From sequence record NZ_CP065281.1: a stretch of 24,993 nt of DNA; one strand, 5' to 3'. Numbering within the stretch: the first letter of the stretch is position 1; every line of letters starts with the position of its first letter. Below are positions 1 through 24,993 of the stretch, in pieces. Under the pieces are notes generated by a model. The model had not been told where the DNA came from, did no database searches, and saw only the letters and a list, made by a program, of their open reading frames with translations. This DNA is from a plasmid. Position numbers and translations under genes: made by a program.

Positions 1-1089
1 ATGTGGACCAGTCGCGCCGGCTGGCTCGACGGACTGTCGCGCTGGGTGCACTCGCCCGCGTTCGGACAGCTGTGCACTGAGGCGCGGGTGTCGATCACCA
101 CGGCCACGCTGTTGTCGATCGCCACGGTGATGGCCGAGCACGCCGATCACGGCACCGGCCGCCACGTCGCGGTCACCCGCGCGACAATCGCCGACAAGGT
201 GGGCTGCGACGTCCGCACCGTGACCGCCGCCTGGCGCGTCCTGAGGGTCTCCAGATGGGCCGTGGAAGCGCAGCGGGGCCACGGTTCGACAACCACCCCC
301 AGCGTCGGCCGCCGACCCTCGGTGTACCACCTGGTGCCGCGTCGCGAAGCCCGTCCAGCGACCCCACCACTCGTGCATGATTTCCACCTACCGCCGTCAG
401 GCGGTGTTGGTTGTTCTTCTCCCGTAGGGAGTTACTCACCAAGCGGGCGCGCGAGCGCGCCCGCCAACCGATGCTGCGACAAGACACGACAAGCCCGGCC
501 GCGGCGCGCTACCGCGCGACCGCTGGCCACCCAAAAACTGGCCGCGGGACTGGTCGCGCTCACCCATGGTCTCGACCGTGCCCACATCGGTGCCATCTGC
601 GATGCACTCACCGGAGCCGGGATCGACCCCGCGGTGTGGTCCGCGCGTGCGGTCAACGACGCCCTCAACGCCGACATGCGCGCCCGAGGAACGACCTGGC
701 CCGACCACATCGCCAACCCCGGCGCGTTCCTCGCCAGCCGGTTGCGACGGCTGTCCTGGGCACCCCCCGAGACGGCGCCGACAAAGGCCGGCGGCTGCGC
801 CGCCGCCAGCATCGACCAGACGCCGCGCCCGGTGGTGCTCACCGATGCAGCGCGGGCCCGGATCACCGCCGCCCGAGAAGAGATCCGCCGAGTGCTCACC
901 GACCGCGCCCAACGCAGCCGTGAGGAACACACCAGCAGCACGCCCGCCACGTCGTCGCGGCGCGACATCGAGCTGCCGGTCCAGACACGGCACGGCGGCG
1001 CGATGAACCGACTCGCAGCAGACCACCGCGCGGTCCGCGGCGACGCGATGGAGCGCACCGTAGAACCTTCGGGCCGACGACGCACCTAG
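1..1089 (+). CDS. HTH DNA-binding protein, 5' end outside window; possible plasmid replication or transfer regulatory protein
   Basis: ORF is open from position 1 with high GC3. N-terminal segment TATLLSIATVMAEHAD...VTRATIADKVGCDVRTVTAAWRVL looks like a helix-turn-helix. A low-complexity linker at nt 370-440 contains a hairpin (CCGCC-GTCA-GGCGG) followed by a T-rich run. No family is confidently recognised. Confidence 0.4.
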   Translation: MWTSRAGWLDGLSRWVHSPAFGQLCTEARVSITTATLLSIATVMAEHADHGTGRHVAVTRATIADKVGCDVRTVTAAWRVLRVSRWAVEAQRGHGSTTTPSVGRRPSVYHLVPRREARPATPPLVHDFHLPPSGGVGCSSPVGSYSPSGRASAPANRCCDKTRQARPRRATARPLATQKLAAGLVALTHGLDRAHIGAICDALTGAGIDPAVWSARAVNDALNADMRARGTTWPDHIANPGAFLASRLRRLSWAPPETAPTKAGGCAAASIDQTPRPVVLTDAARARITAAREEIRRVLTDRAQRSREEHTSSTPATSSRRDIELPVQTRHGGAMNRLAADHRAVRGDAMERTVEPSGRRRT

Positions 1090-1119
1090 CGGTGGCGAAC
1101 CGCCGCGCTGATGTTGCGG

Positions 1120-1330
1120 CCAGACGCGACTCTCAGCACCCCACCAGCGCCCTCTTCGTCGCTTCTCACTCACGTCTTCCGCAATGCTTCCCGCTTCTCT
1201 CCCTACCCCCTCGCTGTTCCATCTTCGCCCGCTCGCGCATCTCCGATGCCCTCTTCACAACCCCCTGACCGTCAGTACTGATCTACTACCATAACGATAC
1301 GGCACATTTGCACAAGTTTGTGCGATGCTG
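1120..1330 (+). promoter_or_regulatory. candidate oriT / relaxase promoter region: polypyrimidine tract followed by inverted repeats
   Basis: A strongly C+T-biased strand runs about 1120-1262. It is followed by CTGAC-C-GTCAG (1265-1275), direct GCACA repeats, and the inverted repeat GCACAA-GT-TTGTGC (1310-1323) in a locally AT-richer stretch immediately upstream of the relaxase gene. MobF oriTs typically lie upstream of the relaxase. Confidence 0.3.
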
Positions 1331-1405
1331 ATGGTGCCGGTTCCGTTCGGGGTGGTCTTCTTCGTGATTTCGGGCTGGGTCGGGCCGGGGAGGAGGTGGG
1401 TAAGG

Positions 1406-4312
1406 GTGTTGACGGTGGCGAAGTTGTCGCTGTGGTCGGTGAACTATTACAACGACACCGCGCGGGCAGTCGGCGACGCCGTGGCGGACCGGCAGAAAGC
1501 CAACGGAGGGTTGGCCGAGTACTACGCCGAACGTGACACCCGCACCCCCGTCTGGACGTGCGCGGGGGATGTGTCTGCGGTCGCGGAGTTGGTTGGTTTG
1601 AGTGCCGCTGAGCGGTCCGGTGGGGATGCTGATCCGGATGTGGTGGCGCGCTGGCTGGACGAGGGTGTGGCGCCGTCTGGGGAGTGTGGTCGGGCGCATG
1701 GCAAGGGCGGGGTGCACGGGTTCGATTTGACGTTTTGCGCGCCGAAATCGGTGTCGTTGGCTCGGGTGTTCGGCGGCGATGTGGGTGATAAAGCGGTCAC
1801 TGCGGCGCACCAGACGGCGGTCGCGGAAGCTTTGGAGTACCTCGCCGCGCATGCCGGCTACACCCGGGTGCACAACCCGGTGACGGGAGAAAAAGACCTC
1901 CAGAAGTTGCCCGGTTTGGTGGCCGCGGCCTATCAACATGAGACCTCGAGGGCGGGGGATCCGCACCTGCACACCCACGTGTTGGTGCCTAATCGGCAGG
2001 CCCGCGCTGATGGCCGGTTGGTGTCGATTGACGGCACCAGTTTGTTCCACGAAGCCCGCGCGGCGGGGATCATCTATCAGGCCACGCTGCGCCACGAACT
2101 GCACCGCCTGATCGGGGTGGAATGGGGTCCGGTGGACGCCCGCACGGGGATGGCCGAGATCGCCGGTATCGATGCGACAACGATCGCTGCCTGGTCGACG
2201 CGCAGCACGGCGTTGCGGGAGTGGGCGGCGAACAATCTGGCCGTTGTTGATGGCGCGGCGGGGCTGTCGCAGGCGCAGTTGGCAGCCGCGCAGAAGGCCA
2301 CGAGACCGCGTAAACCGGAGTCGCTGTCCTGGACCGAGTTGCGGGCGCAGTGGCGCGCCGATCGGCGCGGTCTGGCGGTGTCGCGCACCGCGCAACAAGA
2401 AGCCCGCATCGCGCGCGAACACGCGGCCCGAACGGCGGCAGCGCGCGTCAGCCGCAGCGGCATGGTGGTGGATCGTCGCGCGGTGGCGGCGATGGCCGCG
2501 CGCGCCGACAAAGCTGCGCTCACGCGGGCGGATCTGGTCGAGATTATCGGCGCGCAACTACCCCTGATCGTCGACAGCGGAGCCGGTGAGGATGGGGCCG
2601 CGTCGATGCCGCGGCAGGTCATCGAAGAGTGCGTGGATGCAGTCGGGATGCGGCTGACTGGGCCGCGGCGCGCGCATCAACGCGAAGGCTCAGAGCGGTT
2701 CACTGTCGACCTGATCCTGGCTGAAGAACGTCGCGTGTTCGATCTCGTCGACGCCACCAATGTGCGGGCGATGTCGTGGGTGCGCCCGGAGCACACCGCC
2801 ACCGCGTTGGGGCTGTCCGAACAGCAGTACCAGGTGGTCGCGGCGATCGCGTCCACACCACAGCTGGTGGTGCCGCTGTCGGCGCCGGCCGGGGCGGGCA
2901 AGACCACCTCGATGCGGGCGTTGCGCACCATCGTTGAACACCGCAGTACGGCGCGGATGATCGTGATCGCTCCGACCGGGAAAGCCGTCGATGTCGCCCT
3001 CGCTGAGGGCGCCGCGTCGGAGGGATACACCATGCACGCCGCACTGAGACGGCTCGCTGACGGCCAGTTGGAGTTGGGGCCGTTCGATGTCGTCGTGGTT
3101 GATGAAGCCGGCATGGTCGGCACCGATCAGTGGCGCCAACTCTTTGCCGCGACGACGGCGGCCGGGACGAAGACCGTCCTGGTCGGCGACGCTCACCAGC
3201 TAGCGCCGGTCAAAGCGCGCGGCGGGATGTTCGCTCAACTGTGTGACGAGCTGCCCTGGACTCAACGCCTGACCGAGGTGTGGCGCCAGCACGACCCCAC
3301 CGAACGCGCCGCGTCCCTGGCGTTGCGCGACGGAGGGCCCGCGCCGGTGCGCCGCGCGATCGACTGGTACCGCAACCACGACCGCCTGGCCTGTGGGGAT
3401 CAGGTCACCATGGCCGCCGACGCCCTGGACGCCCACCAGGCTGACCTCGCCGCTGGGAAAGATAGCCTGCTGTTGGCCGACACCGTCGAGATCACCGACG
3501 CGCTCAATCGCCGGGTCCACGACCACACTGTCGCTGAGCGCACCCGCCAAGAGCTTGAGGCGGCGACAATAACCGGGGCGCGCGGTCACCACATCACTGT
3601 CGGCGACGTGATCGTTACGCGCAGCAACGATCCCACCCTCACCGTCTACGCCCCCGATGACCGCACCCGCGTCCTGACCGGGGCGCCGGTGCGCAACGGG
3701 CAACGCTGGCAGGTCATCGCCGTCGATGACACTGCCGAGCATCCCCGCATCGCAGCCCGCCGACACGGTGACCAAGCGTGGGCCGTGTTCAGCGGTGACT
3801 ATCTGCGTGAGCATGTGCAGCTCGGGCACGCGGTCACCGTGCACACCGCACAAGGCGTCACCGCCGACACCACCCACGCCGTGCTCGCTGATACCGCCAG
3901 CCGCAACCTGGCCTACGTCGCACTCACCCGCGGCCGCCAGGCCAACCACGCTTTCCTTTACCACCGCGCGATCGGGGAAGGCGACCACCAACACCGTGAT
4001 CTTTCTGACGGGGTGCACCTTGCCTACCGCGGCACACCCACTCAGGCCGCCCGGGCGCTGCGCCAAGTCATCGGTCGCGACGAGCGGGCCCGCACGGCGC
4101 ACCGCACCGCCGCCGACACCCCCGCGCACGAGCTGCCTGAGCGGGTTGCCTCCCTCGTCGCAGAACACCACCGCGCCGTCACCGCCAGATTGAGCAGTCA
4201 CCGCAAAATTCAACGCAGACAACAGGATCGAGCCCTCGACCGCGCCCTAGGACTCGACCACAGCCAATCCCAACACCAGGGAAGGGATCAGGGCTATGAC
4301 CTCAGCCTCTAA
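1406..4312 (+). CDS. traA: MobF (TrwC/TraA-type) conjugative relaxase with C-terminal helicase domain
   Basis: Proposed GTG start at 1406 lies 6 nt after GGAGGAGGTGGG; the track ORF begins at 1325. The N-terminus has LAEYYAE (catalytic Tyr pair) and the His triad DPHLHTHVLVPN. The C-terminal half has Walker A (SAPAGAGKTTS) and Walker B (VVVVDEAGMV), as in TrwC/TraA relaxase-helicases. Confidence 0.85.
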   Translation: MLTVAKLSLWSVNYYNDTARAVGDAVADRQKANGGLAEYYAERDTRTPVWTCAGDVSAVAELVGLSAAERSGGDADPDVVARWLDEGVAPSGECGRAHGKGGVHGFDLTFCAPKSVSLARVFGGDVGDKAVTAAHQTAVAEALEYLAAHAGYTRVHNPVTGEKDLQKLPGLVAAAYQHETSRAGDPHLHTHVLVPNRQARADGRLVSIDGTSLFHEARAAGIIYQATLRHELHRLIGVEWGPVDARTGMAEIAGIDATTIAAWSTRSTALREWAANNLAVVDGAAGLSQAQLAAAQKATRPRKPESLSWTELRAQWRADRRGLAVSRTAQQEARIAREHAARTAAARVSRSGMVVDRRAVAAMAARADKAALTRADLVEIIGAQLPLIVDSGAGEDGAASMPRQVIEECVDAVGMRLTGPRRAHQREGSERFTVDLILAEERRVFDLVDATNVRAMSWVRPEHTATALGLSEQQYQVVAAIASTPQLVVPLSAPAGAGKTTSMRALRTIVEHRSTARMIVIAPTGKAVDVALAEGAASEGYTMHAALRRLADGQLELGPFDVVVVDEAGMVGTDQWRQLFAATTAAGTKTVLVGDAHQLAPVKARGGMFAQLCDELPWTQRLTEVWRQHDPTERAASLALRDGGPAPVRRAIDWYRNHDRLACGDQVTMAADALDAHQADLAAGKDSLLLADTVEITDALNRRVHDHTVAERTRQELEAATITGARGHHITVGDVIVTRSNDPTLTVYAPDDRTRVLTGAPVRNGQRWQVIAVDDTAEHPRIAARRHGDQAWAVFSGDYLREHVQLGHAVTVHTAQGVTADTTHAVLADTASRNLAYVALTRGRQANHAFLYHRAIGEGDHQHRDLSDGVHLAYRGTPTQAARALRQVIGRDERARTAHRTAADTPAHELPERVASLVAEHHRAVTARLSSHRKIQRRQQDRALDRALGLDHSQSQHQGRDQGYDLSL

Positions 4313-4706
4313 CACGTCGCCCGTGCTCGACGCCGACCGCATCGACGCCACCGCCGAGCGCATCGCCACCGACTGGGGACACCACGGCCACAGCACCATC
4401 ACCGCGATAATCACCGAGCTCTACGCTGAACTAGCCCATTTCCCAGCACATTTCAACCCGCAACAACGCGACGCCATCATCACCGACGCCGCCGACACCA
4501 CCGCCAGCGAACTCACCACACTGCTCGACGACCACATCTACCAAGAAGCCGACCAGCCACCGGTCACCGAATACGGCTGGGTCATGCACACCGACGACCG
4601 CCACGCCGCCGTCGTCGCCGCCCTCGCCAGCCACCTCACCTGGTGGCTCACCGAGCAACTCAACGACTTCATCGCCGACCGCGACGCCGCGCCGGGCGGT
4701 GACTGA
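4296..4706 (+). CDS. hypothetical acidic protein, co-transcribed with relaxase (17-nt overlap)
   Basis: 136-aa ORF with high GC3 whose start overlaps the relaxase 3' end. No recognisable domain. Confidence 0.5.
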   Translation: MTSASNTSPVLDADRIDATAERIATDWGHHGHSTITAIITELYAELAHFPAHFNPQQRDAIITDAADTTASELTTLLDDHIYQEADQPPVTEYGWVMHTDDRHAAVVAALASHLTWWLTEQLNDFIADRDAAPGGD

Positions 4707-5083
4707 TCTTCCCGTCGGGGCGTGTCCAGCCGCCCACCTGCATCTACGACGCTAGACTTGCCGCCATCTGGTGTGATCGTCGCGCGCCAAAACAGCCTCG
4801 GGAGTAGGCGCCTTCAAAAGTTCCGCGGTCCGTGTGCGCCTGTCGCGCACTCAAATACGCTGTTTCATGAAACACTAAAAGGGCGCTATCCGTGCGCCCA
4901 AAATCAACACCGCGACGCGCGCCCCGCACTAGTCTGCGCGGGAAACAAGCCCCTTCCCAGGGGCGGGGCGCCACACCCTAGTTTTAGGTCGTAGCAGCAG
5001 TAACCACGCTGCCGCCTCATCCATGACTTCCATTGCGGTGCAATGTATCCGCAATGGAATGACGCTCCCTGTGAGTGTCAACG

Positions 5084-5109
5084 GCCGGGTTCATCAACCC
5101 GGCTTTTTT
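5084..5109 (+). terminator. rho-independent terminator
   Basis: GCCGGGTT (5084-5091), loop CATC, AACCCGGC (5096-5103), then TTTTTT (5104-5109). Confidence 0.5.
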
Positions 5110-5188
5110 CATGTCCACCCACCGGTGGACTCTTCAGAAAGCTGCCTTTCCCAGTGGAGTGCGGCTTTGCCGTAGGAGGTAACGACAC

Positions 5189-5332
5189 ATGGACGTAGTC
5201 ACGCACGCCTGGGCTCTCGTCTGGCTCTTGGTACCACTGATCTACATCGCTATTCTCGGGCGCCGTGATGAGCCCGCCCAACGCCTCGAGGCGTTAATCA
5301 AAGCCCTCATCGACCGTCGCCCGAGACGCTGA
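5189..5332 (+). CDS. 47-aa single-TM small membrane protein (micro-ORF below the six-frame track cutoff)
   Basis: GGAGGT (5175-5180) lies 8 nt before ATG 5189. Translation is MDVVTHAWALVWLLVPLIYIAILGRRDEPAQRLEALIKALIDRRPRR, with a hydrophobic helix followed by a basic tail. The ORF sits between two plus-strand terminators. Confidence 0.45.
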   Translation: MDVVTHAWALVWLLVPLIYIAILGRRDEPAQRLEALIKALIDRRPRR

Positions 5333-5420
5333 ACCAGCCCCCTGGCATGCCCGAAAGGTCTCTGATGTCGTAGCTCCACGCGTCATCTGACGCACGCCTC
5401 CGCTGCAAGACTGCCTCTTG

Positions 5421-5461
5421 CCTCGCAGGTCGAGCACCAGCTCGACGAGCGGGGCTTTTTT
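5421..5461 (+). terminator. rho-independent terminator (imperfect long hairpin plus T6)
   Basis: CCTCGCAGGTCGAGC-ACCA-GCTCGACGAGCGGGG, then CTTTTTT (T-run 5456-5461). Confidence 0.45.
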
Positions 5462-5705
5462 ATGCCCAGAACGAGACCGCCTACTGTTCGGCCACGTGAC
5501 CGCCGCGCTGCGATACCGTCGCCGCAAATCGATCAGGGACTCGCTCGACGATTCGGAGCTGACACCGACCGTCGACCTACGGATTAAAAGTCCGTAGCTT
5601 CAGCCTGCGACGCAAAATGTCAGAGTATGCGCTGGTGAGCGGCGTAGCATACGAGCCGCGGGCATTTCACCTGAACCGGGCCCCAATATATAGGAGTCTC
5701 TCGGG

Positions 5706-6803
5706 GTGCCCACAGCAGAGGAATGGCGGTCATTGGCCGCTACCGGCATCGTCGAACTCTTGGAGACTGAGGGGGCGGCCACTCAGCCGGGTATGGAGGC
5801 CAAGCTGGCGGACGCGAAGTACGCCAAGTTTGACAGTCCAATTCATCCTCATCACCTGACGACTGCGCGCAACCGATTGCTTGATGCCGGGGTGATCGAG
5901 CGCATCAACGAACGGACGCGAGGTGGTCAGATAGTGGCCACTTTTGTCTTGGCGGATCCGTCGAAGGCGGTCTTGCGGATTGCTGGCCGGAAGCGTCTTC
6001 TGCACCGTCGCTATCTGAGCTGGAGTAGTGCCGCTGCGACTGAATGGGGTGCGCCACCCATTCCGGCGGCGCTGGAGCGGGTTATTCATCGCTCGCTGTT
6101 GGAGGCGGCGCCCCGCGGTTATCACCTTCTGCGCCCTGATGGAGGGGAAGTGGGGCAGATAGCAGGGAGGCCGGTCCCTGGTGGAAGCCTGGACAACGCG
6201 GCCTTTCACACCGGGGTGGGGGTCGATGGTTTGCCGGGCACCACAAAGCTGATGCCCATCGAGGCGAAGAACGTGCGCCAGTGGATTTACCCGCGAACGC
6301 AAGAGCTGTATCAGCTTCTTGATAAGTCTGCACGCCTGCGCGTGGCGAATCCGGACCTTCCAGTAATGCCCATCTTCGTGTGTCGGCGGGTGCAATTCTT
6401 AACGGGAAAGATGGCTCAGCAGTTGGGTTTTCACGTTATCCAAACGTGGCGGCAGTACGTCAGGCCGGCAGTCGCCCACACTGATGAGGATGCGCGGAAG
6501 TTCGAGGAACTTAACACCGAACTGTCGTACAACCTTGAACTTCATGAAGACAGTGTCGAGCCGATGGTCAAGCAGTTCACGGGAGTCATCCCGAAGCGTT
6601 GTGACGATGCGGCCGCGCGGTGGGGGCTCTTTGTTGCCCATCCTGATGTCCCAGATTTGGTCCATCGCATGCGCGATGACGGGATCAGCAATGACGAGCG
6701 TTATGACACGCTTGGTGAGCTCGCGGCGGCGGCGCGGGAGGTGTTCAGCGAGGACGTTGACTGGTTCCACGACGATGACCATGGAGAGCATCCTGACATC
6801 TGA
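5706..6803 (+). CDS. hypothetical protein with N-terminal wHTH-like region and a restriction-endonuclease-like (Mrr_cat / PD-(D/E)xK-type) motif
   Basis: GTG 5706 is preceded by AGGAG (5692-5696). The motif GVGVDGLPGTTKLMPIEAKNVRQW has the D...ExK arrangement of Mrr-like nucleases. The N-terminus HLTTARNRLLDAGVIERIN is wHTH-like. GC content is lower than in the flanking DNA. Confidence 0.6.
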   Translation: MPTAEEWRSLAATGIVELLETEGAATQPGMEAKLADAKYAKFDSPIHPHHLTTARNRLLDAGVIERINERTRGGQIVATFVLADPSKAVLRIAGRKRLLHRRYLSWSSAAATEWGAPPIPAALERVIHRSLLEAAPRGYHLLRPDGGEVGQIAGRPVPGGSLDNAAFHTGVGVDGLPGTTKLMPIEAKNVRQWIYPRTQELYQLLDKSARLRVANPDLPVMPIFVCRRVQFLTGKMAQQLGFHVIQTWRQYVRPAVAHTDEDARKFEELNTELSYNLELHEDSVEPMVKQFTGVIPKRCDDAAARWGLFVAHPDVPDLVHRMRDDGISNDERYDTLGELAAAAREVFSEDVDWFHDDDHGEHPDI

Positions 6804-6852
6804 CTCAGAGCGTATTCGACTGTACTGCTTTATATTTCAGGTTACATCTCGA

Positions 6853-7674
6853 TTAGTTGGTGGATGGATGTGTCACCGTAGCGACATCTAGTCGGCGGTG
6901 CACGAGCGACAGTGCCGTCGCCAGTTCGAGCAACTGGGTGTCGGTCACCGCTCGTAGGGCACGCGGATCGTGAGCCACCGGGTTCCTGAACATGCCGGCG
7001 AGGCCTTTGATGAGGTTGGCGAAGCCTGTTTGTTCATCACGATCGGTTTGGGAGGCCAGGTTGTTGATCGCAATGACTGGTGCCCCTGACTTCCCGAGGG
7101 ACAGTGCCGCATCGATCAGCGGGGCACCGTCGCCGCTGAGGCCCGACATCTGCCGGACTCGTTCGAACACGCTTTTTGTTGCTTCCAGGGAGGCGTGAAA
7201 GTTGTTCTTTTTGAGCAGCTCCACGGTGCAGTAGCGCAGCACTTCGCCGTGGGTGTCTCGTCGTCGTAGCTCTGCCCGCAATGAGGTGGCGTTGCGCGAT
7301 GCCTCGTCCAGGGTGGCGGACCGGGGGCCGCGGTGCACTTTGCCGGTGTCTTCAACGCGGAGGCCGACGAAGGTCAGCACCTCATCGAGCTGGTCTTGGC
7401 GCAGCGTGAACAGCTCGGGCCTGCCGATGTAGTTGGCGGGGTTCATCGCGTGCGTGATGAACGTGATGATCCGCTGCGGATGGCCATCGGTGTTCTGACG
7501 GCGGACGAACGCCTCCTCCAGCCGCTTCCACTTCGTCAGACCGGCGCCGGGATCGTCCATATCAAGACGGCCTAGCAGCTGACCAATCTCGTATCCGGTG
7601 AGGCCACCATGGGTGTCAGCAAGCACTTGGGCGACTCCCGTCAAGACGCCGAGATTCCACGAAGGTTCAGGCAT
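6853..7674 (-). CDS. HEPN-domain protein (Abi_C / TIGR02391-like), putative abortive-infection or toxin RNase
   Basis: Proposed start ATG 7674 (MPEPSWNLGV...); the upstream part of the track ORF overlaps the resolvase gene in another frame. The C-terminal LIKGLAGMFRNPVAHDP carries the Rx4H HEPN motif. Overall layout resembles the Abi_C-terminal family. Confidence 0.6.
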   Translation of the reverse strand: MPEPSWNLGVLTGVAQVLADTHGGLTGYEIGQLLGRLDMDDPGAGLTKWKRLEEAFVRRQNTDGHPQRIITFITHAMNPANYIGRPELFTLRQDQLDEVLTFVGLRVEDTGKVHRGPRSATLDEASRNATSLRAELRRRDTHGEVLRYCTVELLKKNNFHASLEATKSVFERVRQMSGLSGDGAPLIDAALSLGKSGAPVIAINNLASQTDRDEQTGFANLIKGLAGMFRNPVAHDPRALRAVTDTQLLELATALSLVHRRLDVATVTHPSTN

Positions 7675-8251
7675 TCTGTTGCCTTGCTTCACTATTGGCG
7701 ATATATCGATAGGCAGTGGCCCGTCCAATCCCAAACGCGGCAGCAAGCTCGGGGACCGGTTCACCGGTAGCTGCCAGGCGCCGCAGCTGCTCCTGTCGAT
7801 CGGGGCTGAGCTTTGTAGGCTTTGTCGCCGGTAGTTGCCGGGAACGGCGTGAATGCCGGGACGCGGCGCGGCGCTCCCGGCCGAGCTCGAGTTCGAGTTC
7901 CGCGAGGGTCGCCATGATGGCTGCCACGGCGCGGCCCGCAGGAGTGGCGGTGTCGACCCCCTCCCGCAGCGTGCGCAACATGATCTGGCGTTCACCGAGA
8001 TCGGCGATGGTGCGAGTGACTTCGGCAACCGAACGGCCCAGCCGGTCAACGGCCGCCACAACAACCGTGTCCCCGGCTCTCGCGTAATCCAGCATCGCAG
8101 CGAGTCCTGGGCGTTCCGTCCTGGCTGACCCTGAGAGCTTGTCGGTAAAAATTCGGCTCTCGCCGACGCCGGCAGCTGCGAGCGCGGTCAGTTGTGCGTC
8201 GAGGTCCTGGCCGGTGGTGCTGACTCGGGCGTAGCCGATGATCGCCGTCAT
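7667..8251 (-). CDS. serine recombinase (resolvase/invertase family)
   Basis: N-terminal IIGYARVSTTGQDLDAQ (catalytic Ser motif) and C-terminal HTH (GIGRATAYRYI). Its 3' end overlaps the HEPN gene start by 8 nt. Confidence 0.85.
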   Translation of the reverse strand: MTAIIGYARVSTTGQDLDAQLTALAAAGVGESRIFTDKLSGSARTERPGLAAMLDYARAGDTVVVAAVDRLGRSVAEVTRTIADLGERQIMLRTLREGVDTATPAGRAVAAIMATLAELELELGRERRAASRHSRRSRQLPATKPTKLSPDRQEQLRRLAATGEPVPELAAAFGIGRATAYRYIANSEARQQNA

Positions 8252-8259
8252 GCGATGAC

Positions 8260-8390
8260 TGTCTCACCGGACTCCGACAGTTCAGATCTGAGACACGCAG
8301 TGTGAGACAAGAAACGAGACACTGCGACCTGGCGCTGTGCGACCGCAGCGTTTGGCCGCGTGGGCTGTCTCGTTTCTTTAGATACGAGAC
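8260..8390. promoter_or_regulatory. res-like recombinase binding region
   Basis: Lies immediately upstream of the resolvase start. TGTCTCA (8260-8266) and TGAGACA (8289-8295) are 7-bp inverted arms. GTCTCGT (8367-8373) and ACGAGAC (8384-8390) are inverted arms with a 10-bp spacer. There are additional GAGACA direct repeats. Confidence 0.4.
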
Positions 8391-8430
8391 GGGGATAGTG
8401 CAGGCGCACGCAACGGCGGTGCGCCAGTCG

Positions 8431-11400
8431 CTACCGCTGGGTGGTGGGTTGTTGTTTTCGGGAAGCTAGGTGGGGCCACCAGCTGGCTTCGCGCAGGAGT
8501 GTGGCGATGGCGGGCACGGTGAGGGTGCGCACGAGGAAGGTGTCGAGTAGCAGTCCGAAGCCGATGATGAGGCCGGCTTGGACCATGATCGCTACCGAGC
8601 CGACCATGAGTCCGAACATGCTGACGGCGAAGATGAGGCCAGCGGAGGTGATGACGGCGCCGGTGTTGGCCACGGTGCGTAGCACGCCGACGCGGATGTT
8701 GCTTCCCGATTCTTCGCGTAGCCGGGACACGAGCAGCATGTTGTAGTCGGCTCCGACGGCGACGAGGATGATGAAGGCCAATAGTGGTACAGGCCAGGCG
8801 ATTTCGTGTCCAAGAATCCATTGGAAGACCAGGACGCCGAATCCGATGGAGGCGAGGTAGTTGAGTAAGACGGTGCCCAGAAGGTAGATCGGTGCCAGTA
8901 CCGCGCGCAGCAGCAGGACCAAGATGATGCCGACGATGACGGTGGTGGCCAGGGCGAGTTGGGCGAAGTCTGCCCAGAGGAATCGTTGGATGTCGGAGTT
9001 GACGGCGGGGAAGCCGGCGACCGAGACGGTGGCCTGGGCCAGTGAGGTGTTGGGTCGTGCGTTCTCGGCGGTGGTGGTGATGCGGTGGGCGAGGTTCATG
9101 GCGTCGACGCTGTAGGGGTCGTAGCTGGTTTCGATCATGAATCGTGCGGTTTTGCCGTCTGGTGAGAGGAATTGTTTGGCGACGTCGGTGAATTGGCGGT
9201 TCTCGAAGGCGGTGGCGGGTAGGTAGAAACCGCTTGCTGAGTCGGAGTCTTGGGCGGCGCGTGCGGAGTTCTGGAGCTGGGTGGCGATCTGGTTCATTCC
9301 GGAGAGCATTTCGATGTTGCTGTCGGCCAGGGTGCGCACACCGGTGGCCAACGCTTGGGCGCCGGAGGCGAGTTGGCTGATTCCGTCTTGGAGGCGGCGC
9401 AGGTTGGCGGCCAGGTCCGCGGGGTTTCCAAGGGCACCGAAGGCGTCCTCCAGTGAGGTGACGGCGTTCTGCACGGTGGCAAGGGTGTCGGCGACGGTGG
9501 CGTTGCGGGCGGGGTTGTAGCGGTCGCCGAGGTCGGCGATCTGGGTGAAGAATCCGTTGTTGCGCAGGGTGGTCAGGATGTGTACCTGGTCGCGGATTTG
9601 GGCGCATTGGGGTGTGGTGGCACACCAGGGCGAGGTGTTGAGGGCGCCGACGAGTGGGTCGAGCATTGTGATCGCGTGGTCTGCTTGGTCGGCTAGGGGG
9701 CGGATGCCTGGCCCGGATTGGATGGCCTGATCGACGGCAGGGGCGGTCGCTGAGAGCTGTTGGAGCAGGGGCCGGAACTGGTTGACCTGAGTGCCGGCGG
9801 ATTGGGCTTGTGTGAGGATTCCCGCCAGGGGGGCCAGGGCGGTGCGCACGCTGGTGTCGAGTTGAGCGAGTCCGCCGGCGAGTTGATCGGCGCCGTCGGT
9901 GAGTTTGGTGAGGTCGTCGCGGCGGGCGTTGCCGTCGGCGACCGCGCCGGCCATCTTGTCTCCGATTTGGCCGTTTTGCCAGGCCAGTTGCGCTTGATCG
10001 AGGCGTTCCCCGGTGGGGCGGGTGACTCCGGAGACTGTGGTGACACCGGGAACCTGGGAGACGCGGGAGGCCATTTCGTCGAGGTCGGCCAGTCCCTTGC
10101 CGGTACGCATGTCGGTGGGGTTCTCCACGACCAGGAATTCGGTGATGACGGCGTCTTTGCGGAAGTGGCGGTCCAGCAGCTGGTAGCCCTGGTTGCTGGC
10201 GGTGGTGGCGGGTTGGCCTTTGCGGTCGTCGTAGCTGATCTTGATGGTCGCGGCCACCGCCGATAGGGCGAGCAGGATGACGAGGCTGACGATCAGCAGT
10301 GGCACCGGACGGCGCACCACCGCTACGGCGACACTGTTCCAGTACCGGCGGGTGCGATCGGATTTGGGTTCACCGATGCCGCGTTTAGCTGCCAGTGCCA
10401 GTACCGGCGGGAGCAGGGTGACGGTGGCCAGGAAGCCGACGAGAACCGCGATGGCGCATGCCGGGCCCAGGGCGGCGAATACGCTCAAGCGGGCGAACAC
10501 CATGGCCAGAAAGGCCAGTGCGACGGTGGCTGCGGAGGCCAGGATGACACGGCCGATGCTGGCGGTGGCGTGGATGATGGCCTGTTCGGCTGGTACCTGT
10601 GCGCGGCGCTGTTCGTGGTAGCGGCTGATGAGGAACACGGTGTAGTCGGTGCCGGCGCCGAGCAGGATCGCGGTCATGAACGCGACGGTGAATTGCGAGA
10701 CCGGCATGCCCATCTCGCCTAGCGCCGAGAGCACACCGCGCCCGACGGCCAGGCTCAGTCCGATGACCAGCAGCGGCAGCAGTGCGGTGAACACCGACCG
10801 GTACACGATCAGCAGGATCAGGGCGATCATCGCGGCGGTGGCGATCGAGATCAGCAGCAGATCATGCTCGGCGGCCGCGATCATGTCGCTGAACGTCGCC
10901 GGCGGCCCAGTCACCTGTGCGGTGGTCGACGAATCGGCGAACACTTCGGCGGTGAGGTCCCGCACCGATTCCACGGATTCGGCCGCGGCGGGGTCGCCGA
11001 GCGTGCCGGCCACGCCCACCGGTAGGTACCACGATCGGCCGTCGGCGCTGACGGCTTGGGTTTTGGTGACCGGGTCGGCCAGCAGGTCCTGTACCAGCAA
11101 GACGTGCTCGGTGTCGGCGCGCAGCTGTTGCACCAGGCGGTCGTAGCGCTGTCGGGCCGCCGGGGTGAGCCCGGCAGGGTCTTCCATAGCGACGAACAGC
11201 AGTGTTTTCGAGCCTTGCTCCCCGAACGCAGCGCTCATCCGCTCCACCGTTTGCAGCGACGGCGCATCGCGCGGAATCAAATCGACCGACTGCTGGCGCA
11301 CCACCGTCTCCAACTGGGGAAACAGCACCGCCAAGACGATCGCGGCGCCGAGCCAGGTGCCTATCGTCAATGCTTTGTGCCGCACTGTGAATCGGCCCAA

Positions 11401-19488: not shown

Positions 19489-19902
19489 GGCTACATCTCC
19501 AGGAGGCGAGAAAGAGACAACCGATCCCTACGGTTGTCGCTTCCTCTTAAGTCCGCGCGTACCGCGAACCCCTGAAACCTGGAGAAAGTTTTTTTCCAAG
19601 CGAGCGGTCGCGGCCCGTGCGCTCGCCATTGTCCCAGGTCGACCCGACAATCCCCCGCATCCGGAAGAGGGGCTGCTGACGCCCCTGGGGCCGCTGGACC
19701 CGCCACGTGCGGCTCCTCGCGTGATGAGGTCGGTGCACCCGGTGTCTGGCATGGAAGAACGCCGCGAAGTGAATCGACGGAAGCGGGGCGCGGGTGGGGC
19801 ACCAAAGAAAAAAACCCCGGCCGCGTCATGGCTCCAGGCCAGAGAGGCGGTGTCCGGGGACTTCTGCCAGTTATGTTACCTCGGACCACGAAAAGGAGTC
19901 CA

Positions 19903-20673
19903 GTGGTAGAGACCCCCCAGCAGGCAGAGGTGCGTCGCGCCGCTGCGCTCGATCGAGCCATATCGACCCCGCGCTACGCGTCCTATCTGAACGCCGCCGG
20001 CCAAGACGCCGACCGTGCCCGCAAGCTCTACGTCTGGGACCGTGACCTTTCGACAGCCATTCTCGCGGACCTGGCCATCGTCGAAGTGGCGTTACGCAAC
20101 GCCCTACACAACGCGCTGACCGGCACCTACGGACCTGAGTGGTACCAGAACATCGCCCTCGATGACCGCTCGATGAAGCAGGTCGAACGAGCCTGGGGCT
20201 ATCTCCGCAATCCTCGGCAAGGCCACCCATCGACACCTGGGCGAGTGATCGCGCAGTGCACCTTCGGAATGTGGGTCAACCTTCTCGATGCCGGCGGCTA
20301 CGCCGGCCGGGAGCCCCGCCGCGTCCACGCCGACTACGAGCAGCTGTGGCGATCGACGCTGCGCTCTGCATTCCCCGGTGGGCGCATCGAAGCACGAAAC
20401 GACCCAAGCCCCCACGCGAGCTTCACCAGGACGTGGGTTCACTCCGTCGCCAAGACCGTCAACGTTCTACGCAACCGGGTCGCCCACCACGAACCCCTGC
20501 ACAACGGATTCCCGTTGCCTGGCCAGCGGTCGGGTCAACAGCAGCCGAACCGCCTCACCGCCGCCGAGGGCGTCGAGGCCTACATGAAGCTCACCCGCAT
20601 GATCGACCGCAACCTCGCAGAGTGGATCGCCAACAACACCAAGGTCACGACCCTGCTGGCCACACGTCCATGA
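19903..20673 (+). CDS. Abi_2 family (AbiD/AbiF-like) abortive infection protein, HEPN-type
   Basis: GTG 19903 after AAGGAG. The protein has ISTPRYASYL ... LYVWDRDLSTAILADLAIVEVALRNALHNAL (the Abi_2 signature) and a C-terminal NVLRNRVAHHEP (Rx4H). Confidence 0.75.
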   Translation: MVETPQQAEVRRAAALDRAISTPRYASYLNAAGQDADRARKLYVWDRDLSTAILADLAIVEVALRNALHNALTGTYGPEWYQNIALDDRSMKQVERAWGYLRNPRQGHPSTPGRVIAQCTFGMWVNLLDAGGYAGREPRRVHADYEQLWRSTLRSAFPGGRIEARNDPSPHASFTRTWVHSVAKTVNVLRNRVAHHEPLHNGFPLPGQRSGQQQPNRLTAAEGVEAYMKLTRMIDRNLAEWIANNTKVTTLLATRP

Positions 20674-20787: not shown

Positions 20788-21594
20788 ATGACTGTTTCGG
20801 CAGATAAGCAGTGCGAAATCCTGGCCGTGGCGCTGCAGAAGGGCGGCGTCGGCAAGACAACCACCACGATCAACCTCGGCGCGAACCTGGCCGCGATGGG
20901 TCTACGCGTCCTCGTAATCGACATGGATCAGCAGGCGCACAGCACCAAGGGGCTGGGCATCGAACTCGACGCCGAGGACGCGTCCATGTACGAGGTTCTG
21001 CACCCGGACCGGGCGACGCGCGTCCCGTTGGCCAAGGTCATCGTTCCGACGCAGTTCGGCATCGACGTCGCGCCCGGTCATCTCGCGCTCAAGGAGCTCG
21101 AGCGAACCGGGCTCGGATCGGGAGGCCAGCTGCGGCTAGCGCGCCAGCTCGACGACATCGAGGGCTACGACTTCGTGCTCCTGGATTGCCCGCCGGCATT
21201 GGGGGAGCTGACCACCGCAGCACTCGCGGCGGCCGACTACGTGCTGGCCGTCCTCAAGGCCGGCCCCGACGAGGTGGACGGCCTGGTGGAGCTGGGCAAC
21301 TCGATCCTCGACGTTCAGGAGACCCTCAACCCCGACGTGGAAATCCGGTACGTGCTGCTGGCCGACTTCGACGGCAACCCGAAGGCGAGCAAGGACGTGC
21401 GCAGACAACTGCGTGCCGACTGGGGGGAGTGGTCTGACGGCGGGGCCTACCTGGGCGAGATCCCGCACACGGTGCGGGTGGTGGAAGCCAAGGGCAAACG
21501 CGTACCGGTCAACGTGCACGCCCCGACCAGCACGGCGGCGGTGGCCTACCGCGAGGTCGCCGAACGCATCGCGGCAAGGCGGCACGCAGCATGA
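20788..21594 (+). CDS. parA: ParA/Soj-family partition ATPase
   Basis: Deviant Walker A KGGVGKTTTTINLG, with ParA-like length and layout. Confidence 0.9.
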   Translation: MTVSADKQCEILAVALQKGGVGKTTTTINLGANLAAMGLRVLVIDMDQQAHSTKGLGIELDAEDASMYEVLHPDRATRVPLAKVIVPTQFGIDVAPGHLALKELERTGLGSGGQLRLARQLDDIEGYDFVLLDCPPALGELTTAALAAADYVLAVLKAGPDEVDGLVELGNSILDVQETLNPDVEIRYVLLADFDGNPKASKDVRRQLRADWGEWSDGGAYLGEIPHTVRVVEAKGKRVPVNVHAPTSTAAVAYREVAERIAARRHAA

Positions 21595-24558: not shown

Positions 24559-24993
24559 TCACCCCGCCAGGACCTAAAAACCTCTGCTGGTCGGACAGGG
24601 GTCTTGGCATACGTGACATCTGAATAGCCGGTGTGCGGATTACCCCGCTGACATGACGAAGGCCCCGCGTTAGCGAGGCCCTTGTCTGAGGTTTTGAACC
24701 GAGCGCCAACTCGGTTCGGGGTCCGCACCCGATATCCCCGAAGGGACTTTGCTCTGAAAGGCAAGTCTCACGGTAGCGCACGCCTGTCCGGCGTACCAGA
24801 TACGCCGCGCATCCAGTGTGCGAATCGTGACCTCATCAGCGCCCGATCACATCGGGCGAGCAGTACGCGGCCGACACCGCTCGGCGCGGCTGTAGCTCCT
24901 GCTGCTCCCAACCCCCATGTGGCTCGTGCGCACGCCAATGAGCGTCGTCGTGACTGGGTGACGCGTGCCGGCTCCTGCGCACCGTCTGCGCCG

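Follow-up and report, generated by a model that had tools for sequence, protein, structure and literature searches.

Ymh proteins form one of the HEPN families, in which an Rx4-6H motif is conserved and whose members occur as solos, as fusions and together with restriction-modification (R-M) operons (Anantharaman et al. 2013, PMC3710099). PD-λ-3, a validated system that acts by abortive infection (PMC9519451; PMC13190303), is a 2759-bp region from E. coli ECOR28 with three open reading frames (ORFs) that was described as 'Nuclease, HEPN' (Vassallo et al. 2022, PMC9519451 supplement). In Tn3-family transposons, toxin-antitoxin (TA) genes, in one case encoding a HEPN protein, are located at the res site and resolvase gene (Lima-Mendez et al. 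2020, PMC7157771). These TA genes are distinct from ordinary passengers and are likely to be under res-linked regulation (PMC7157771). Here we compare these systems with a locus in a 24,993-nucleotide stretch of plasmid DNA (NZ_CP065281.1), the whole of which is called the window below. The locus consists of a res-like site, a serine resolvase gene, a gene for a Ymh-type HEPN protein and, convergent to the latter, a gene for a predicted nuclease that we term ORF A. An original prediction, made from the letters of the window, had proposed that the HEPN protein and the ORF A product form a novel mobile defense or abortive-infection module.

Our results reveal that ORF A and the HEPN gene are neighbors, and not an obligate or evolutionarily coupled pair. 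Co-occurrence was evaluated with 45 loci carrying an ORF A-family gene and 24 loci carrying a Ymh-HEPN gene of this type, drawn from genomes, plasmids and metagenomes. In profile searches, both genes are found together only in loci L001 through L004 (4 of the 45 ORF A loci and 4 of the 24 HEPN loci), all of which carry the same DNA block as the window at 85-95% identity. ORF A stands without a HEPN partner in the other 41 loci, and a HEPN neighbor is never present beside ORF A homologues of 66% identity or less. The expectation of a conserved pair in the original prediction therefore essentially fails, since in the loci surveyed the two genes never appear together outside one closely related block.

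Four relatives of the locus carry the resolvase and HEPN genes but no ORF A. For example, L045 is 97.7% identical to the window over the MmpL, resolvase and HEPN genes and encodes an identical HEPN protein, and in it window positions 4422-6716 are deleted at a junction with GAGCTC microhomology, such that the last 87 nucleotides of ORF A remain. This loss is unlikely to be a misassembly, as the junction has only 6 nucleotides of microhomology and the end of ORF A is retained. At this locus, an M. aubagnense plasmid (L046) has only positions 6872-8390 (res, resolvase and HEPN gene) in common with the window, and a convergent AbiD/PD-T4-5-like gene occupies the ORF A slot. This slot is filled by a convergent RES-Xre pair in L057, where the resolvase and HEPN genes abut (HEPN identity 72%), and by other downstream genes in L067, where the two genes overlap (85%). 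The order of resolvase gene followed by HEPN gene is conserved in seven contexts (the window, L001/L002, L003, L045, L046, L057 and L067) with HEPN proteins that are 72-100% identical.

The neighbors of Ymh HEPN genes elsewhere also vary, and all are conflict- or defense-type genes. These include PD-Lambda-3_A and an Mrr_cat nuclease in E. coli, a Shedu nuclease after the Ymh gene in Cupriavidus pMOL28, an Abi gene in Dietzia, HEPN_RiboL-PSP and HEPN_AbiV genes in Gordonia, and a TniB-like ATPase and resolvase within a transposon in Rhodococcus. Comparisons by BLASTP and by hidden Markov models (HMMs) uncovered no relationship between ORF A and the Ymh partners in Rothia, Cupriavidus, Agrobacterium, Streptomyces, Dietzia and M. 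aubagnense, and these partners and those in E. coli are also mutually unrelated, save the two Abi proteins. Because of the limits on co-occurrence, the natural variants without ORF A and the varying partners elsewhere, we conclude that the conserved unit is res-resolvase-HEPN. The two genes of this unit form a translationally coupled operon in which the resolvase stop codon region overlaps the HEPN start by 8 nucleotides (AATGCCTGA), and the convergent position next to the HEPN gene acts as a slot with variable content. The interpretation that we favor, with a probability of roughly 0.55, is that the locus combines this resolvase-HEPN unit with a facultative ORF A nuclease that acts independently. 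ORF A and the HEPN gene would be found together because the slot is variable for toxin and defense genes, and their products do not appear to need each other.

The closest characterized relative of the HEPN gene is in PD-λ-3. One locus on an E. coli plasmid measures exactly 2759 bp and encodes PD-Lambda-3_A (159 amino acids (aa), 2e-100), PD-Lambda-3_B (1e-179) and a 477-aa Mrr_cat protein, and we infer from its identical length and near-perfect profile matches that it is PD-λ-3. Of 5426 complete E. coli genomes, 31 retain this block as a whole. The HEPN protein of the window corresponds to PD-Lambda-3_B end to end, the E. coli protein being 44% identical with the same two-domain layout and RNxxAH motif, and, if the locus is matched correctly, PD-λ-3 likewise has a PD-(D/E)xK (Mrr_cat) nuclease adjoining its HEPN gene. 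However, the E. coli nuclease gene is downstream and co-directional, whereas ORF A is convergent and has another architecture. Moreover, the gene directly upstream of B encodes the ~159-aa PD-Lambda-3_A protein in E. coli, but is an overlapping serine resolvase gene in the window.

No PD-Lambda-3_A was found in the window, either by PADLOC among four window proteins or in a tblastn search of the complete window with the A protein from E. coli (nothing at E<1). ORF A was considered as a homologue of a PD-λ-3 partner and rejected: hhalign probabilities against PD-Lambda-3_A and Mrr_cat are below 1% (0.2% for the E. coli Mrr_cat protein, with which only the general PD-(D/E)xK fold is common), and PADLOC yields no PD-λ-3 match for 44 members of the ORF A family. 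Therefore, the window should not be filed as PD-λ-3, because B is its only recognizable component, with no A component, no Mrr_cat protein and no co-directional operon. Conversely, a Ymh HEPN with a restriction-type nuclease is a known composition because the PD-λ-3 region contains both. The pairing, which the original prediction had put forward as a candidate novelty, was thus as a concept already on record in the 'Nuclease, HEPN' region and in the known association of Ymh genes with R-M operons.

These comparisons bear on an alternative explanation, namely that ORF A and the HEPN gene constitute one two-component defense system, a lineage-specific analogue of PD-λ-3 in which the nuclease senses or cuts DNA and the RNase joins. 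Consistent with this, the validated region holds a Ymh HEPN and an Mrr_cat nuclease in a block that persists as a unit in the 31 E. coli genomes, the Ymh gene of Cupriavidus pMOL28 is followed by the Shedu nuclease gene, and in mycobacteria the block at 5615-8390 is intact in three different flanks, with the two stop codons 49 nucleotides apart and with similar GC content at third codon positions (GC3). Yet co-occurrence is confined to that one block (DNA identity of at least 85%), neither PD-λ-3 partner is related to ORF A in sequence, the four relatives described above do without ORF A, and the two genes are not co-transcribed because they are convergent. The AbiD, AbiV, Shedu and RES-Xre families act as self-sufficient systems. 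Their presence beside Ymh genes elsewhere fits a clustering of genes in islands and not a partnership. We consider a joint system of the two proteins to be unlikely, and of the proposed module a plausible defense role is left for the HEPN gene.

Assignment of the HEPN protein is based on matches to PF09509 (Hypoth_Ymh; 1.5e-31, 109.2 bits against a cut-off of 25), TIGR02391 (9e-28, 96.9 bits, cut-off 39.45) and the PADLOC profile PD-Lambda-3_B (PDLC03987; E 3.2e-72, with residues 11-267 on profile positions 12-265 of 270), as well as to phrog_6297. Both the four-helix HEPN fold and the conserved Rx4-6H motif are present, as had been predicted from RNPVAH. Residues R230, N231, A234 and H235 of this motif are invariant in an alignment of 34 homologues that extends down to 41% identity and takes in E. 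coli, Agrobacterium and Cupriavidus plasmid proteins, as are the polar residues E164, K167, R174, E214 and Q215. The full-length match to PD-Lambda-3_B makes a defense or abortive-infection role for this gene plausible. In its profile scores and motif the protein resembles the Ymh family as surveyed previously (PMC3710099), and the R-M association of that family fits the restriction-like neighbor. That survey is without coupling to a plasmid resolvase, however, and the N-terminal domain of the window protein is of the PD-λ-3_B type and not AbiJ-NTD, AbiTii or paraMORC. No MNT nucleotidyltransferase antitoxin lies beside the gene, whose sole neighbors are the resolvase gene and ORF A, neither of which encodes an MNT protein.

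The conserved translational coupling to the resolvase gene in seven contexts could also be read to mean that the HEPN protein is no RNase toxin, but assists or regulates the resolvase or its res site without being toxic, in the manner of the HEPN-fold regulator MtlR. This explanation is very improbable given that the Rx4H catalytic motif and the five additional polar residues are invariant, that most family members have no resolvase close by, and that the family includes a validated abortive-infection component, PD-Lambda-3_B.

The arrangement of the unit resembles that of Tn3-family TA genes in that a toxin-type gene is found directly at the res site and resolvase gene. It differs in the absence of an antitoxin and of a Tn3 transposase, and in the position of the HEPN gene, which is downstream of the resolvase gene and overlaps it, whereas Tn3 TA genes are usually upstream. 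The element in the window is furthermore a plasmid resolution locus, while a Rhodococcus relative resides in a TniA/TniB-type transposon. In Rhodococcus and metagenome contigs (L039 and L042-L044, positions 400-6510), a Ymh HEPN gene whose product is 65% identical lies between genes for a TniB-like AAA_22 ATPase and a resolvase. The gene order of these transposon-like elements is integrase, hypothetical protein, rve/Mu-transpos_C transposase, ATPase, HEPN protein and resolvase, and therefore the HEPN gene sits within a transposition and resolution module. In Rothia (L058/L059) and Gordonia (L061/L062), a Ymh HEPN gene with variable neighbors is present directly downstream of the ychF GTPase gene, which suggests that this position is a chromosomal integration hotspot for Ymh HEPN and neighbor genes in Actinobacteria.

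For ORF A, an AlphaFold 2 (AF2) model was obtained with high confidence (predicted local distance difference test (pLDDT) 94.2, predicted template modeling score (pTM) 0.91). The model comprises a winged helix (residues ~1-85), an αβββαβ core (~118-250) and a C-terminal helical domain of ~110 residues. An alignment of 44 homologues with 33-87% identity has E124, D163, E186, K188, N189, R191, Q203 and K207 invariant. The core fold together with the invariance of D163, E186 and K188 down to 33% identity identifies a PD-(D/E)xK nuclease with the motif LD163NAA...IE186AK188, whose acidic residues and lysine end the second and third core strands, and with E124 in the first helix. Accordingly, the winged helix, the nuclease fold and the IEAK residues of the original prediction are borne out, but not its catalytic aspartate: GVDG falls in a variable loop and the aspartate of LDNAA is invariant, and for this reason we assign D163 to that role. 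The label 'Mrr-like' likewise holds for the fold and not for the sequence, as there is no match to Mrr_cat (PF04471) or Mrr_N that would place ORF A among Mrr or type IV enzymes.

More generally, no match to ORF A was found in Pfam (E<=1), NCBIfam, PADLOC, PHROGs or PDB sequences; the PADLOC run suggested with the prediction thus identified the HEPN protein and returned nothing for ORF A. A precomputed Pfam domain is absent in all 88 ORF A homologues, and searches of PDB sequences with ORF A and its profile returned only noise. Foldseek against the PDB gave no global structural match, with matches at the level of domains only (E>1e-3, template modeling (TM) score ~0.2), and the repair nuclease NucS/EndoMS is among the best. 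Mrr and other type IV enzymes, NucS/EndoMS, and the nuclease domains of Can2 and Cap4 form a comparison group that shares a winged helix and PD-(D/E)xK domain, from which ORF A differs by its own C-terminal helical domain and by the lack of a CARF, SAVED or SRA sensor. An exhaustive profile search at E<=1e-3 recovered representatives of 910 clusters (50% identity), of which 360 also pass E<=1e-30. Almost all are ~350 aa long and matched from end to end. ORF A therefore belongs to a substantial family of nucleases with a winged helix and a PD-(D/E)xK domain that is unannotated, is frequent on actinobacterial plasmids and is also present on other mobile elements.

The distribution of this family raises the question of whether ORF A is a conflict gene at all, or instead serves in plasmid housekeeping, for instance as a structure-specific nuclease that aids replication, conjugation or multimer resolution. 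Homologues are often found on small (18-25 kb) actinobacterial plasmids beside ParA, resolvase or MobF genes, a serine resolvase gene lies within 5 kb in 13 of the 45 loci, and the structural similarity to NucS/EndoMS could be read in the same way. Against this, many homologues are chromosomal and lie among unrelated housekeeping genes, sister plasmids with the same backbone (L045 and L046) do without ORF A, and toxin or Abi genes fill its slot in sister plasmids, all of which makes a housekeeping role quite doubtful. Among 118 proteins flanking ORF A at 34 loci, no recurrent Pfam family was observed other than Resolvase, which appears three times.

Two additional observations concern the ORF A family. 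In M. parascrofulaceum (L019) and the M. intracellulare plasmid CP012887.2 (L063), a resolvase that is 80% identical to that of the window is encoded 2.6 kb from a gene for a 32%-identical ORF A homologue, which is divergent from ParA, and there is no HEPN gene; in mycobacterial plasmids, the repeated presence of ORF A-like genes in the par/res region thus does not depend on the HEPN gene. Mycobacterium phage phiGD24-3 (L066, MW314854.1) contains at 2501-2671, on the strand opposite annotated gene 91, an unannotated stretch of 171 nucleotides that encodes the first 56 ORF A residues at 72% identity. This stretch appears to be what is left of an ORF A-like gene in a prophage of M. abscessus.

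From these data we can outline how the two independent modules that we favor might operate. The first would run from the res site to the resolvase gene and the overlapping HEPN gene, presumably co-transcribed from a promoter embedded in res. As judged from its family, the HEPN protein would be a PD-λ-3_B-type RNase, most likely an abortive-infection or addiction toxin, whose N-terminal helical domain might hold the Rx4H site in check until phage infection, plasmid loss or a similar event triggers the protein. Once triggered, it would cleave cellular RNA and thereby halt growth. The second module, which is facultative, would be a stand-alone DNA endonuclease encoded by ORF A with predicted catalytic residues E124, D163, E186 and K188. 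It most likely cuts foreign or competing DNA as a restriction-like, single-gene system used in conflicts with mobile elements and phages.

Several observations weigh against this interpretation. The window contains no recognizable antitoxin or PD-Lambda-3_A partner for the HEPN protein, and PADLOC classifies only ~5 of the 118 proteins flanking ORF A as defense-like, a weak defense enrichment. Both PD-λ-3 and Cupriavidus pMOL28 also set a nuclease beside a Ymh HEPN, and the block of ORF A, HEPN and resolvase genes moves as one unit, with identical ends, into at least three contexts. With this joint movement, the shared low GC3 and the adjacency of nuclease and Ymh genes elsewhere, cooperation of ORF A and the HEPN protein in this lineage is possible. 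Furthermore, the RNase and DNase activities, the trigger and the toxicity are all inferred.

What is new at this locus is modest: a solo PD-λ-3_B-type HEPN gene coupled to a resolvase gene, and an unannotated nuclease family. A bolder proposal, which we offer only tentatively, is that ORF A founds a widespread single-gene family of defense or exclusion nucleases borne by plasmids and other mobile genetic elements (~900 clusters at 50% identity, with no Pfam, NCBIfam, PADLOC or PHROGs model), and that the res-resolvase-HEPN operon is a new resolvase-regulated solo HEPN toxin. This toxin would mark a res-side hotspot at which mycobacterial plasmids exchange genes for defense and toxins (ORF A, AbiD-like, RES-Xre). 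If the solo, resolvase-coupled HEPN protein is active, then an anti-phage family of RNases can function independently of the partner proteins that it has in E. coli, and this HEPN family would be wired into plasmid and transposon resolution modules much as TA genes are in Tn3 transposons. Such an activity would matter for phage resistance and for the stability of plasmids in mycobacteria, the M. abscessus plasmids with this block among them. ORF A itself provides a well-modeled entry to a family of ~900 clusters that is unnamed in annotation resources. The locus also calls for caution, in that two adjacent conflict-type genes should not be taken as one system without a co-occurrence test.

The features of the locus are listed in the table below. 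The convergent genes lie where the original prediction had placed them, with the serine resolvase gene and res-like repeats at the edge. The resolvase has the catalytic domain and C-terminal HTH_7 of a small serine resolvase, with clustered inverted half-sites upstream of its gene. Within 8284-8391, the 12-mer TGTCTCRYWTCT is present in four copies (<=1 mismatch), a set that includes the outermost palindrome, and no further copy at this threshold is found elsewhere in the 25-kb window. The spacer between the convergent genes has no significant hairpin (z-score 0.08) and no Rfam match, and no terminator or RNA element was detected between these genes or in 4300-8600.

Table. Features of the ORF A-HEPN-resolvase locus, with positions in the window
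Feature	Position	Strand	Length	Description
Left edge of conserved block, ORF A 5' region	5615-5705	+		AGGAG ribosome-binding site; similarity to other loci begins here
ORF A	5706-6803	+	365 aa	Winged helix, PD-(D/E)xK core and C-terminal helical domain; unannotated family
Spacer between convergent stop codons	6804-6852		49 nt	AT-rich
HEPN gene	6853-7674	-	273 aa	N-terminal helical domain and C-terminal Ymh-type HEPN domain with R230-N-P-V-A-H235
Small serine resolvase gene	7667-8251	-	194 aa	Pfam Resolvase 2.5e-35, HTH_7 1.8e-07; upstream of HEPN gene
res-like site, right edge of block	8258-8391			Six TGTCTC/GAGACA half-sites; outermost palindrome TGTCTCGTTTCTTTAGATACGAGAC at 8366-8390

The proposal that the genes form a recombinase-linked cassette is supported. 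In M. abscessus plasmids (85.7% identity) and an M. iranicum scaffold (94.6%), a 2.76-kb block (5615/5631-8390) is found again with its ends unchanged and its flanks different. On the left, similarity begins at ~5615 for L003 and at ~5631 for L001, and the upstream sequences are unrelated in the three contexts. On the right, the res-like site is conserved in five plasmids (the window, L001, L003, L045 and L046), and for L001, L003 and L046 the homology stops right after the palindrome at 8366-8390. In every comparison the right end is thus at the outermost res palindrome, where crossover by the resolvase would produce mosaics. No second res-like site was found at the left edge or between the genes. 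Because of this, and because left ends differ between block types, resolvase-mediated recombination explains the right boundary only. The lower GC content noted in the prediction was also confirmed by our values for GC and GC3, which are 0.60 and 0.67 for ORF A, 0.62 and 0.73 for the HEPN gene, and 0.66 and 0.69 for the resolvase gene, compared with 0.68 and 0.80 for the relaxase gene, 0.65 and 0.81 for MmpL, and 0.67 and 0.86 for ParA.

The region is an accessory segment of a mycobacterial MOBF plasmid of ~25 kb and lies beside its multimer-resolution site. The plasmid carries Rep, MobF relaxase and ParA genes and an MmpL/TetR/P450 cargo region. The window looks like one complete circular plasmid because the alignment with the M. 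aubagnense plasmid CP122999.1 (L046, 10141-11448) runs unbroken through the end and start of the window (24609-24992 and 1-914), over the rep gene of that plasmid. Between a relaxase-linked 136-aa gene and the block is a stretch of ~0.9 kb (4707-5600) with lower GC content (0.60) and no convincing ORF, which is closed by a hairpin (CTACGGATTAAAAGTCCGTAG) at ~5584-5604. This stretch is kept at ~85% identity in an M. abscessus plasmid and at ~83% in an M. pallens plasmid (window ~4995-5475), and could be an oriT or other backbone element. A second HEPN-type abortive-infection gene, which is AbiD/Abi_2-like, is located at 19828-20673 (+), just upstream of ParA (20788-21594). Its product has 58% identity to an 'Abi family protein' of a Dietzia plasmid and 32% to the protein found in place of ORF A in M. 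aubagnense, and the same Abi-ParA arrangement is present in an M. abscessus plasmid (L001, 15975-17678).

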